A stretch of DNA of 64,000 bases from a virus. The notes under the pieces are model-generated. The model ran no database searches, was not told where the DNA came from, and was given only the letters and a program-made list of their open reading frames with translations. The translations under genes were made by a program, and so were the position numbers. Shown here piece after piece: positions 6,086 through 10,911 of this stretch (position 1 is the stretch's first letter; each line of letters opens with the position of its first letter). Location of the stretch: the IMG/VR virus record IMGVR_UViG_3300037340_000044, positions 11,843 to 75,842 of that record; one strand, given 5' to 3'.

Positions 6086-6112
6086 TGCAACATTCGCGGC
6101 CGGCGAGCGTAT
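6086..6112 (+). promoter_or_regulatory. ECF-type promoter copy 1 (TGCAAC-N16-CGTAT)
   Basis: One of four intergenic copies with identical spacing. Confidence 0.7.
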
Positions 6113-6180
6113 TCTATGTTGTCGAGCCAACTGGTTCGCCGCGAACGGCCCGCGACCTGGCCGATGGAAGGATGCGACCG

Positions 6181-6411
6181 ATGAACGAATATCTGCCCGC
6201 TACCGTGCGTGCGAAGTGCCCATGCGGATGCGATGATCGCGAGTTTGACCTGCCGCCGCTGGGCATGCGCTACTCTGATCCGGCCTACCAGCATTACCTG
6301 CGCACTGGCGAATACCCGCCCGCGCCGCTGACGTTCCGCTGGTCGAGCGTGCGGGAGCTGCTGATAGTCGCGGTGTGCGGTGTGGCCGCTGGCGTGCTGG
6401 CCAGCTTGTAA
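6181..6411 (+). CDS. small membrane-anchored hypothetical protein
   Basis: AAGGA SD; C-terminal hydrophobic helix. Confidence 0.5.
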   Translation: MNEYLPATVRAKCPCGCDDREFDLPPLGMRYSDPAYQHYLRTGEYPPAPLTFRWSSVRELLIVAVCGVAAGVLASL

Positions 6412-6418
6412 AATGCTC

Positions 6419-6445
6419 TGCAACTATTCAGCGCGGTGTGCGTAT
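6419..6445 (+). promoter_or_regulatory. ECF-type promoter copy 2
   Basis: TGCAAC-tattcagcgcggtgtg-CGTAT. Confidence 0.7.
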
Positions 6446-6511
6446 ACCTTAGTAGTCGGACACAACCGACAACGCTAACGGCCAGCGAACAGGCCGCAAG
6501 AGGGCGAGACA

Positions 6512-6742
6512 ATGGATCAGAAAACGTGCAGATGCGAAGTATTCGTCATCGTCGATGAGGACGGAGACTACTCCGTGGGAGCTGACCAGGACAGCGCGTC
6601 CGAACATTATGTCGATAACTACGGCGGCGACGTGCGGCGCGTGGTCAGGATCGTTTTGGAAGTGCCGCTGCCGACGATCATCGAACTGACCGGCACCGTG
6701 CCACCGGAAGGCACGTCGGCCACGCTAACCGTGTCGCAGTAG
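6512..6742 (+). CDS. hypothetical protein
   Basis: 76-aa acidic ORF downstream of promoter copy 2. Confidence 0.6.
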   Translation: MDQKTCRCEVFVIVDEDGDYSVGADQDSASEHYVDNYGGDVRRVVRIVLEVPLPTIIELTGTVPPEGTSATLTVSQ

Positions 6743-6848
6743 GCCGGCAAGCCGTGTACTCCCGAGCGGCAATTGATCGGGAGCGCTTGCAATTGCGATT
6801 GCAGGCGAGCGAACGGGTCGCTATCTGACCCGATAATGGGGTGACGAC

Positions 6849-7403
6849 ATGAGCAAAACCAAAGAAGACAACCTGCACAGCATCGGCAAGTGCGCCATGG
6901 CATCCATCCGAGAAATGGTGGACGCCCTGGAATGCGATTACGACAGGCTGACCGATCTGCGAGACGAGCGCGACAGCTACGAGCCCAGCGACGGCGAAGA
7001 GCGTCTGACGCAGACCGAGTGCGCGACCAATGCCGAGCAATGGGCATTCGACAACAGCGAAGAGGCGGAAGAGCTGGCGGCGTTGGAAGCGGACGCCGGC
7101 GAATGCACGGACCGCGAAGACGCCGAGCAGCGCATCCACGATGACCCGATGAGCCTGGAATACCGGTCGGGCTGGTGCGCGAGCAAGGAAGAGATGGAAC
7201 CGGAAGAATTTGTCTTGCTGCTGACCACTGGCGGCCCGGCGGTGCGGATCATCGGCGAAGTGAGCGACGGGGAACCGGATCGGCCACGGCTGCAAACCCA
7301 GGACTGGGGAACGAGCTGGACGGACTACTTCGGCGGCGAAGATCATTCGGACGACTGCGAAGCGCTGCTGACCTACTGCCGATGCTTCTGCATGGAATCG
7401 TAA
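6849..7403 (+). CDS. very acidic hypothetical protein
   Basis: 184 aa, Asp/Glu-rich; LLTTGGPAVRIIG motif. Confidence 0.7.
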   Translation: MSKTKEDNLHSIGKCAMASIREMVDALECDYDRLTDLRDERDSYEPSDGEERLTQTECATNAEQWAFDNSEEAEELAALEADAGECTDREDAEQRIHDDPMSLEYRSGWCASKEEMEPEEFVLLLTTGGPAVRIIGEVSDGEPDRPRLQTQDWGTSWTDYFGGEDHSDDCEALLTYCRCFCMES

Positions 7404-7458
7404 TCGTGAGAACGGCAGGCCGCGCCGATTAGCGGCCAGAATCCGAGAGGGCAACGAA

Positions 7459-8208
7459 ATGAATCTCGCAGAGAAATACCGCCCGCGACACTTCGCGGGC
7501 ATCGCAGGCCAGCGTGCGGCAGTCGAGCAAATCCAGCGCGTGCTGGCGCGTGGATGGGGCGGTCGCGCGTGGTGGCTGTCCGGGCCGAGCGGCACGGGCA
7601 AGAGTACGATGGCGTACCTCATTGCCCAGCACGGCGCCGATCCGTTCTACATCGAAGAACTGGATGCGCAGCTACTCACGCCCGCAAAGCTTCGGGACGT
7701 GGAAGACGGTATGCACTACCGGGCAATGAGCGGCAAGCCTGGCAAGGCTTATCTGGTGAATGAGGCGCACGCGCTCATTCCCAGCGTCGTGCGGCTGTTG
7801 CTCGTGGTGTTGGAGCGACTGCCAGAACACGTCGCGGTGATCTTCACCACGACGGCCACGGCAACCCCATCCCTGTTCGGATCTGATGAAGGCGGCCCGC
7901 TGCAAAGCCGATGCACCCAGATTGACTTGGAGGCGAGCGCGGAGACGCAACGCGCCATGGCGCAGCGTGCCAAGCGCGTCGCGCAGGCGGAAGGTATCGA
8001 CGGGCTGCCGGATGAGGTGTACGTCGATGCGTTGGCGCAGTGCCGGGGCAACCTGCGCATGCTGATCCAGCGTATCGAGAGCGGTCGATTCTCGGAGGAT
8101 GCGAGCAAGCGGAACGCGCTGAAGGGCGAGTTGGCAAATTTGCCGACTGGCAAAACGACTGCCAAGCGGCGCGAGGCAATCATGGCCGAGCTAGGCGGTG
8201 CGGCGTGA
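7459..8208 (+). CDS. clamp-loader-clade AAA+ ATPase (DnaX/RFC/RarA-like)
   Basis: LAEKYRP..F..IAGQ box, Walker A GPSGTGKS, Walker B variant LVNEAH, SRC arginine-finger motif. Confidence 0.85.
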   Translation: MNLAEKYRPRHFAGIAGQRAAVEQIQRVLARGWGGRAWWLSGPSGTGKSTMAYLIAQHGADPFYIEELDAQLLTPAKLRDVEDGMHYRAMSGKPGKAYLVNEAHALIPSVVRLLLVVLERLPEHVAVIFTTTATATPSLFGSDEGGPLQSRCTQIDLEASAETQRAMAQRAKRVAQAEGIDGLPDEVYVDALAQCRGNLRMLIQRIESGRFSEDASKRNALKGELANLPTGKTTAKRREAIMAELGGAA

Positions 8209-9205: not shown

Positions 9206-9534
9206 ACCCGAGTGAATCGCGGGCGCGTGCCTGCAAAATTGCAGAATCGATGGGCTGGTTTCTCGGCCAGGACGAGAACCGCAAGCCGAAGCTGTTTCGG
9301 CCGACGCATCCGGCACGACTGTTCGACACCTGGCTAATCGCGCTGACCTGGCTAATGGGTCAGCGCGAACTGCTGCCGAAGGGCGAGGTGCGCCAGCCAG
9401 CCGCGCAGCCGGTAAGTAGTCGGCAAATAGTCGGCAATCAGTCATCAGGGGGATTAGCCCCCCGGCGAGCAACGGCGGCGGACGCCAGCATACCGATGGC
9501 CGCTATCGTGCCTACGGCGCGGCGGATCGGCTAG
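9202..9534 (+). CDS. hypothetical protein
   Basis: ATGA overlap. Confidence 0.45.
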   Translation: MNPSESRARACKIAESMGWFLGQDENRKPKLFRPTHPARLFDTWLIALTWLMGQRELLPKGEVRQPAAQPVSSRQIVGNQSSGGLAPRRATAADASIPMAAIVPTARRIG

Positions 9535-9551
9535 ATTTATCGCTCGCCGCG

Positions 9552-9578
9552 TGCAACGAATGGGCGCGGCGAGCGTAT
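9552..9578 (+). promoter_or_regulatory. ECF-type promoter copy 3
   Basis: TGCAAC-gaatgggcgcggcgag-CGTAT. Confidence 0.7.
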
Positions 9579-9617
9579 ACAGTGGTGGAGACGCGAGACA
9601 CAATCAAACTGGAGACG

Positions 9618-9719
9618 ATGATGACAACTTTTTCGCTGGTGGTTCTGGGGATCGGCCTGGTGGTGTGGGTGGTGAAGTGTGCGGTCGAAACCTGGGGCGA
9701 TTGCGACGAGGCGAAGTAG
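9618..9719 (+). CDS. 33-aa single-TM peptide
   Basis: GGAG SD; MMTTFSLVVLGIGLVVWVVKCAVETWGDCDEAK. Confidence 0.5.
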   Translation: MMTTFSLVVLGIGLVVWVVKCAVETWGDCDEAK

Positions 9720-9755
9720 ACCCAGAGACGCGAGACACCTAACGGGATACGAACG

Positions 9756-9977
9756 ATGAACGGAAACATTCGGTTGCAGGACGTTGACGACACTACCCGC
9801 GCCAAGGTCGCGGTAATCGTCCAGGCAGCTCGAGATTGGCAGGGCGAGCGCATCACCTGGGCAGAGTTCATGCGACGGGCCGACGTGACGGTTTCTGGCG
9901 AGTGCTGCTTGGCCGGCATCGGCTACAACACCGACGGGGCCGAAATCGAAAGCCGCGCTTTGGCAGCCGCGGTATGA
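9756..9977 (+). CDS. hypothetical protein
   Basis: 73-aa ORF with SD-like GGGA. Confidence 0.5.
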   Translation: MNGNIRLQDVDDTTRAKVAVIVQAARDWQGERITWAEFMRRADVTVSGECCLAGIGYNTDGAEIESRALAAAV

Positions 9978-10102
9978 CCACCCGAGCCGGACCAAGGGCG
10001 GCGAGTACAATGAACCGAGTCCCCACGGCGCCGCCCAGCATGGCCTTTGGCCGGTGGCGCTCGTGGGGAATGTTCTGCGCGGAACATGTGTACAATGGAA
10101 TC

Positions 10103-10879
10103 ATGGACACAATCCCAATAGTGGCCGAGCAACCCATTACTGCACCCATCGTGCCTTGGAAGCCAAAGCAGGAGCGCGGTAGCGCAGAACCGATGCCGGG
10201 AAGGTGTGGAGGAAAGCTAAAGGACACCGACCCGCCGCGCTACTGCACGCGCGTCGATAGGCGTACGGGAGGACGGTGCTTTCTGCATGGTGGCATGACA
10301 CCGCGCGGACTAGCAAGCTCCAACGCGACCGCAGGTGGCATCTACTCGAAATATATGCCAGCCGGCCCGATGGCAGACGCCTATGCGCGCATGCATGCGG
10401 ATCGGCAGAGCCTACACAGTCTAGCCGAGAAGATAAAGGTGATGGAGTCGTTCTGGGAAGACGACCTATCCCAGCTCGCAGGGGCAGAGATCGCGACCAT
10501 CACAGCCATGATCGGCAATATTGCAGACGGCCTAACGCGAGAGAAGGAACCGATATCGGCCGAGGAAGGCGCTGCGCAGCTTCGCCAACTCGCCGCCACA
10601 GCGCAGGACGCACGCGCAGCCAGGCGCAGAGCCATTGCGGTAGCGCACGATCAGGCGAAGCTTGTGGATACGGACCTGCGCAGGCAAGCTCAGCAGGAGC
10701 ATATGGTTACGACAGAGCAGGCCATATCGTTCGCCTACGCGGTCGGAGACGGCATGAAGGAGCTGCTAGGCCGCCTAGGAGCCCAGCAGAGCGACTATGC
10801 CGAACTGCGCGACCAGATACAACGAGCGGCTGCGAGGTGGCTCATGGGCGCGAATCCAGACGACGTGAAAACGCAATAA
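10103..10879 (+). CDS. HGGxSTG-domain protein, putative terminase small subunit
   Basis: RCGGK..C......GRCFLHGGMTPRG..N motif followed by a helical C-terminus; upstream of terL. Confidence 0.65.
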   Translation: MDTIPIVAEQPITAPIVPWKPKQERGSAEPMPGRCGGKLKDTDPPRYCTRVDRRTGGRCFLHGGMTPRGLASSNATAGGIYSKYMPAGPMADAYARMHADRQSLHSLAEKIKVMESFWEDDLSQLAGAEIATITAMIGNIADGLTREKEPISAEEGAAQLRQLAATAQDARAARRRAIAVAHDQAKLVDTDLRRQAQQEHMVTTEQAISFAYAVGDGMKELLGRLGAQQSDYAELRDQIQRAAARWLMGANPDDVKTQ

Positions 10880-10884
10880 TCGCG

Positions 10885-10911
10885 TGCAACAAACGGCGCC
10901 GGCGAGCGTAT
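10885..10911 (+). promoter_or_regulatory. ECF-type promoter copy 4
   Basis: TGCAAC-aaacggcgccggcgag-CGTAT. Confidence 0.7.

Follow-up and report, generated by a model that had tools for sequence, protein, structure and literature searches.

Four identical, probable ECF-type promoter sites in an uncultured peat phage, and a portal-fused sigma factor as their candidate reader

Extracytoplasmic function (ECF, group 4) sigma factors recognise promoters in which AAC in the -35 element and CGT in the -10 element are combined with a spacing of 16-17 nucleotides (nt) between the two elements, as in the Bacillus subtilis sigW consensus TGAAAC-N16-CGTA. Phage N4 injects a complete single-subunit polymerase which reads hairpin promoters, the Alt protein of phage T4 is an ADP-ribosyltransferase, and to our knowledge no sigma factor is known as virion cargo. 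A phage-encoded, ECF-like sigma factor with its own set of phage promoters has been described in phage phiEco32, where gp36 acts together with gp79 (PMC12276001). In Streptomyces coelicolor, the targets of the sigE regulon, defined by chromatin immunoprecipitation sequencing and S1 mapping, include TGCAACCCTGTCCCGAGTTCCGC-CGTCTG, and one of them reads TGCAAC-N17-CGTCT, with the promoter search of that study having relied on the conserved AAC and TC (PMC6767563). Several ECF sigma factors read overlapping promoters (PMC6767563), and the sequence of the spacer has been found to modulate the choice of ECF sigma factor (Gaballa et al.; PMC5758882). Here, we describe a 64,000-nt stretch of phage DNA (the window, to which all positions refer), corresponding to positions 11843-75842 of the linear IMG/VR virus record IMGVR_UViG_3300037340_000044 (75,842 nt, ~78% complete by CheckV). 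It carries four copies of the element TGCAAC-N16-CGTAT in and before a compact gene module, as well as a portal gene extended by a sigma factor domain.

Four exact matches to TGCAAC-N16-CGTAT are found, all on the + strand, where 0.03 would be expected, and none of 100 dinucleotide shuffles produced four; the four-copy motif is far beyond chance. A scan of the whole record returned the same four sites and no more, with zero in the 11.8 kilobases (kb) ahead of the window. When one mismatch was allowed, a single extra match appeared, on the minus strand inside the portal gene (28344), which corresponds to the chance level. Enumeration of 5-mer/N14-19/5-mer pairs in all intergenic DNA, on both strands, gave this motif as the sole oriented, non-palindromic family with four copies. 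A position-weight matrix derived from the four sites was also tried and was set aside as overfitted and without gain. A preliminary description of the window had listed these copies at 6086, 6419, 9552 and 10885 as intergenic, + strand sites confined to one block and located upstream of open reading frames (ORFs) with Shine-Dalgarno sequences, three of them sharing CGGCGAG before the -10 element, and in all of these respects it was correct.

The first site (P1, 6086..6112) heads an ORF of 76 amino acids (aa) with a C-terminal membrane helix (6181..6411), with the transcription start predicted at ~6118-6120, and the second (P2, 6419..6445) heads another 76-aa ORF, which is acidic (6512..6742). 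P3 (9552..9578) precedes a 33-aa membrane peptide (9618..9719), followed by ORFs at 9756..9977 and 10010..10879, while P4 (10885..10911) precedes a 50-aa ORF (10981..11133) and an ORF at 11180..11809. Intergenic DNA makes up only ~13% of the record, in which almost all genes lie on the + strand, yet all four sites are intergenic according to our own gene calls. P2, P3 and P4 begin 7, 17 and 5 nt past the preceding stop codon, respectively, and P1 begins 192 nt past the hairpin of an intrinsic terminator (5875..5900, + strand; GCCGCC..GGCGGC hairpin at 5875-5893, then TTTTT) that closes the upstream operon. An ATG follows each site at a distance of 39-69 nt and is in each case preceded by a Shine-Dalgarno-like GGA/GAGG run.

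Alignment of the sites shows that their similarity extends from ~2 nt before TGCAAC to ~8 nt past CGTAT (about -37 to +8) and not beyond. The two halves, TGCAAC and CGTAT, are asymmetric and their 16-nt spacing is invariant; the copies are identical over these 11 core positions and have in addition a GC-rich spacer block. Directly before CGTAT, this block reads CGGCGAG in sites 1, 3 and 4 and CGGTGTG in site 2, the longer aligned sequences being CGGCGAGCGTAT for the former three and CGGTGTGCGTAT for the latter, and W-C-N-N-T follows CGTAT in all four. A further copy at 6788..6814 (+ strand), 34 nt upstream of the ORF at 6849..7403, has decayed to TGCAAT-N16-CGAAC with its GGCGAG spacer block kept, and is probably weak or dead. 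TGCAAC-N15-GGTAT at 11059..11084 (+ strand), upstream of 11117/11180..11809, may be a weak copy, being statistically marginal and barely above chance. With both of these copies included, the motif occupies nearly all sizeable gaps of the module and none of the gaps outside it.

Some structured DNA lies around the first and third sites. A dense array of palindromes and repeats of the GTATAC/GTGCAC/GTGTAC type (5920..6060) ends ~25 nt short of the -35 element of P1 and is a possible operator array, origin or packaging site. A 177-nt array of these palindromes is flanked by the arms of a perfect 14-nt inverted repeat, CGCTCGCCGGCCGC at 5905-5918 and GCGGCCGGCGAGCG at 6096-6109, the right arm of which is the P1 spacer. 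In a single permafrost contig (run X1), 9 nt of different sequence connect 5589 with 7064; this would represent a natural variant in which the terminator, the array of palindromes, both P1 and P2, and the two leading ORFs are missing. At P3, a strong hairpin (9541..9573, + strand) with a 12-bp GC stem holds the -35 element in its loop (-39.3 kcal/mol, z -4.4), this being the only one of the four sites with a significant hairpin.

These properties very probably make the four sites promoters of the ECF type. All four have AAC within the -35 element (TGCAAC), a -10 element that starts with CGT (CGTAT) and a 16-nt spacing, and all are placed upstream of a gene and oriented along with it, so that the resemblance to ECF promoters put forward in the preliminary description is supported by architecture, strand, spacing and placement alike. 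Since spacer sequence tunes the choice of ECF sigma factor (PMC5758882), the GGCGAG block is a plausible selectivity element.

A candidate reader is encoded in the same record. The ORF at 25828..28686 (+ strand, 952 aa) is a fusion in which a Mu-type portal (Portal_Mu, residues 254-526) is followed by Sigma70_r2 (692-759) and sigma region 4 (780-833), as assigned by Pfam. Its sigma part, at about nt 27886-28332, is the only sigma-70-family match in the record and spans the full TIGR02937 (ECF superfamily) profile with 81.1 bits against a cut-off of 42.9 bits, and a Pfam and TIGR profile search of the fusion gave no match to region 3 or region 1. Judged by these profiles, the sigma part is an intact ECF-superfamily domain composed of regions 2 and 4, which bears out the portal-borne sigma factor of the preliminary description. 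The best solved relatives of this part are ECF SigE proteins, and its nearest clusters by language-model features are free-standing viral sigma factors of 150-190 aa. A word-based search returned no free-standing close homologue of the domain, which consequently could not be assigned to any cellular ECF group for which the promoter is known.

The fusion is real and conserved, though rare. When 1.8 billion cluster representatives were searched exhaustively with HMMER, ~1,500 portals were recovered, and among the 150 best of these only one other protein (P0002, 1112 aa, 48% identical overall) also has regions 2 and 4 behind the portal. Since P0002 comes from a different assembly and has the same order of Portal_Mu, region 2 and region 4, the fusion is no artefact of assembly. 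The closest portals otherwise have extensions that lack a sigma domain (P0003-P0005) or carry a NUDIX domain (P0007). In region 4, the two fusion proteins have different recognition helices and therefore need not share a -35 element. Residues ~1060-1112 of P0002 resemble the end of a 154-aa ORF (28683-29147) with which the portal-sigma gene overlaps at its stop, so that portal, sigma factor and downstream protein appear to form one polypeptide in this relative. An internal start at Met689 would yield a free sigma factor, and the Shine-Dalgarno match upstream of it is weak.

Two repeated elements occur at the portal-sigma gene. A dispersed palindrome, TTCTGCAAATTTGCAGAA, has a copy at 27818-27845 within the portal-sigma linker, ~50 nt before Met689, where sigma region 2 starts; the half-site TGCAAA of this palindrome is similar to the -35 element TGCAAC, and further copies at 15798 and 43149 precede genes and have T runs after them. 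A nearly identical stretch of ~35 nt, CAATGGGACGYTYCGGTTCGCGAAAGCGAGCCG, is located at 20663-20700, directly before a 492-aa gene at 20701, and at 25826-25860, at the start of the portal-sigma gene, and may represent a second shared regulatory or leader element.

The most economical reading is that P1-P4 are read by the phage's own portal-fused sigma factor, given that this is the only sigma factor of the record and the motif its only candidate target family; we assign this reading a probability of about 0.5. Under this proposal, host core RNA polymerase would associate with the ECF-like sigma domain and recognise TGCAAC and CGTAT, starting four nested + strand transcripts ~6-8 nt past CGTAT which would jointly express the 5.7-kb module (6181-11809), with the conserved GGCGAG block possibly adding selectivity for the phage sigma factor or a co-factor. 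The timing would depend on the state of the protein: a sigma factor released from the portal and entering with the DNA would make the module early, whereas one acting after de novo synthesis would delay it.

Several points weigh against this proposal. With only four sites, per-position conservation is weakly defined. No motif copy is found upstream of the sigma gene near 25828 when zero or one mismatch is allowed across the whole record, so that the autoregulation usual for ECF sigma factors is absent. At ~78% completeness, another sigma factor or further motif copies may sit in the missing part of the genome. A sigma factor encoded within a portal gene would be made late, and an early module would fit only if the protein were carried into the next cell. 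A peat metatranscriptome contains unstranded contigs of the phage that lack 5' ends, are scattered inside and outside the module over 20 kb and give no ranking of expression, with DNA being possible in the RNA library. Finally, the overlapping specificities of ECF sigma factors (PMC6767563) mean that a host sigma factor could serve in its place.

This last point leads to the first alternative, in which a host ECF sigma factor, for instance an envelope-stress sigma factor induced by infection, reads the four sites, and the portal-fused sigma factor has other targets or another role. The core motif is indeed generic, with sigE targets of the form TGCAAC-N17-CGTC and overlapping regulons on record (PMC6767563), and a phage sigma gene with no motif upstream would be in accordance with a reader encoded elsewhere. 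However, this explanation leaves the phage's own intact ECF-type sigma factor with no visible target set, and the identity among the sites includes CGGCGAG of the spacer and continues to just beyond the -10 element, as is usual for promoter sets specific to a phage but not for stress regulons. The motif, together with its spacer block, was also sought in public collections. Only single matches turned up, with 3 among viral contigs, 57 among metagenomes and 38 among genomes, and they are at chance level save one (L029), which is the same phage at 99.9% identity. The 38 genomic matches, obtained from 185,579 species genomes, belong to unrelated phyla and reveal no host regulon, this being a weak test since the spacer block was required. 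On balance, we consider a host reader to be a serious but rather unlikely alternative to the phage's own sigma factor.

The module itself comprises ~13 + strand ORFs over 5.7 kb (6181..11809) and, with its flanking signals, extends from 6086 to ~12340. Past its last gene, two + strand hairpins were read by eye within 12225..12344, a terminator scan not having listed them; they are located at 12225-12256 and 12313-12337, the second being followed by TTTTCATC, and are likely to mark the end of the module transcripts. A sigma-70 consensus scan detected no + strand sigma-70-like promoter at 5000-12700. Elsewhere in intergenic DNA, 11/12 matches to the sigma-70 consensus occur before the head genes (TTGACA-16-CATAAT, 31761-31788) and at 62824-62853 (TTGACA-18-TATTAT), and the earlier statement that other operons have TTGACA-type promoters holds for these two. 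Because of this distribution, the module looks like an apparent transcription unit dependent on a promoter class other than that of the rest of the genome.

Searches of the module ORFs against Pfam and PHROGs gave a single match, an AAA+ clamp-loader-like ATPase (7459..8208, + strand; phrog_5846, E 3e-31). A homologue of this ATPase adjoins helicase homologues in another viral record, which points to DNA replication and an early or middle function. The ORF at 6849..7403 encodes a 184-aa protein with 27% acidic residues, for which the AlphaFold model was unusable (pLDDT 37), and small membrane peptides are found among the remaining products. A 289-aa protein (10010..10879) under P3 has a zinc-ribbon-like motif, Cys...RCxxHGG, and is a member of a widespread, unnamed viral family; its nearest named Atlas clusters are small terminase subunits, with a score of 0.80 that serves as a lead only. 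Taken together, the content of the module is ambiguous as to timing, as an AAA+ ATPase of the replication type is found along with ORFans and a protein that may resemble small terminases, and the label early, where it is applied to this module, is an interpretation and not an observation. On the far side of the module, two small minus-strand ORFs (12772-12903 and ~12408-12693) have ribbon-helix-helix-like N-termini as read from the sequence (IKVRLTADERAA... and ITIYLTPERLDKL..., respectively) and gave no database match, the latter ORF with a sigma-70-like promoter that has a TG extension (12762-12734), and both are possible regulators.

A stronger version of the phage-sigma proposal holds that cleavage frees the sigma factor from the portal and that the capsid then takes it up and ejects it along with the DNA, so that P1-P4 would fire first, with no new protein synthesis and independently of host sigma-70. 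In portals, the C-terminal side is turned to the inside of the capsid, which would suit such a route. In addition, the nearest portals bear either other C-terminal cargo, as with NUDIX in P0007, or none recognisable, and the module starts right past a terminator with no host-type promoter. It also contains a replication-type AAA+ ATPase with a homologue beside helicase homologues, as well as small ORFans and a very acidic protein, kinds of product common among early genes. Portal and MuF proteins with fused effector domains, for which injection along with the DNA is predicted, have been described, although the word sigma is absent from the survey of polyvalent proteins concerned, so that its cargo domains do not include sigma factors (PMC5512222). 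Other observations fit virion delivery poorly: a virion holds at most 12 portal copies, the 289-aa protein would have a late function if its proximity to small terminases were borne out, and the module is transcribed towards, and not away from, the neighbouring minus-strand regulatory genes. Delivery of the sigma factor in the virion is in our view doubtful, and clearly less probable than the reading of P1-P4 by the phage sigma factor as such.

Less probable still is the explanation that the sites are not promoters, being instead oriented sites for another DNA-binding protein, such as operators or stoperator-like roadblocks, or remnants of an intergenic repeat. The perfect 14-nt inverted partner of the P1 spacer block, 177 nt upstream of it, and the strong hairpin in which the P3 spacer block is paired with its inverted copy could be taken in this sense, and the GC-rich block may itself be a protein-binding or structural site. 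Against this stand halves that lack symmetry, always lie 16 nt apart and always occur on the coding strand, after one stop codon and ahead of the ribosome-binding site that follows it, similarity that ends at about -37 to +8, and the restriction of a significant hairpin to one of the four sites; we regard this explanation as improbable. A dimeric operator is disfavoured by the lack of symmetry between the two halves, and this reading was rejected, along with that of sigma-54 sites, on grounds of asymmetry and spacing.

Relatives of the phage were sought in other DNA. Searches of viral, metagenome and genome contigs that started from the portal-sigma protein, from P0002 or from an alignment of six portals found no relative, nor did a search with the large terminase, and tblastn and megablast against deposited phages returned none. 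The AAA+ ATPase led to two viral records (G001 and G002, the latter 98% complete) which share only the ATPase gene with the present phage. Neither record has a sigma factor, and the motif is not above the control level in them, but with a single gene in common they provide no real test of co-occurrence. The phage itself was found in permafrost and peat metagenomes of three studies.

Other features of the record include a direct repeat of ~38 nt, GAACCGGCCAATTCTGAGAACCAAAGGAGCCGATTGTG, which contains a ribosome-binding site and a GTG start and stands before two neighbouring small ORFs, with copies at ~10472-10510 and 10738-10776 of L066 (window -1370 and -1104). A tRNA-Thr(TGT) gene is present at 60612-60686, and the assembly was probably stopped by a long GCT/GAT triplet repeat at the end of the record (63560-64000).

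Phage-specific promoter sets read by phage sigma factors are known, and the present case differs in that the only sigma factor of the record is part of a structural gene, that of the portal, with its likely targets gathered in a compact, terminator-bracketed module devoid of a host-type promoter. If it were true that this sigma factor reaches the next cell within the virion, it would be the first one known as capsid cargo and would constitute a new way of starting phage transcription, beside the N4 virion polymerase and T4 Alt, and a function would be provided for one class of the variable extensions that portals carry in many uncultured phages. Either way, four identical promoters and a domain of ~170 aa form a compact candidate for an orthogonal sigma factor/promoter system, amenable to work in vitro with no need to culture the peat host.

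When compared to cellular ECF promoters, such as those of sigW, sigM and sigX in B. subtilis or sigE in S. coelicolor, the four sites have the same AAC in the -35 element, CGT in the -10 element and 16-17 nt spacing. In contrast to the cellular promoters, they are borne by a phage, none of them precedes a sigma gene, an anti-sigma partner has not been identified, and the identity of the copies over the core is accompanied by a GC-rich spacer block. A phage promoter set for an alternative sigma factor is known as a class, of which the present locus is a variant with canonical ECF form and a sigma factor borne by a structural gene. As with gp36 of phiEco32, a two-domain phage sigma factor is here proposed to redirect the host core polymerase to a few nearly identical phage promoters. 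Nonetheless, gp36 is free-standing, acts in the middle phase on AATGTA centred at -11.5 and needs its co-factor gp79, whereas the sigma factor described here is fused to the portal and the sites have the canonical two-box ECF form. Polyvalent proteins offer a likeness of another kind, that of a Mu-type portal with a variable C-terminal extension (Iyer et al., 2017; PMC5512222), which concerns the portal-sigma protein and not the promoters, and the text describing them differs from the present case in making no use of the word sigma. The N4 virion RNA polymerase and T4 Alt embody the same concept as virion delivery, in that the first transcription is set up by a protein which the capsid carries and delivers along with the DNA, a role which for the portal-fused sigma factor is proposed only.

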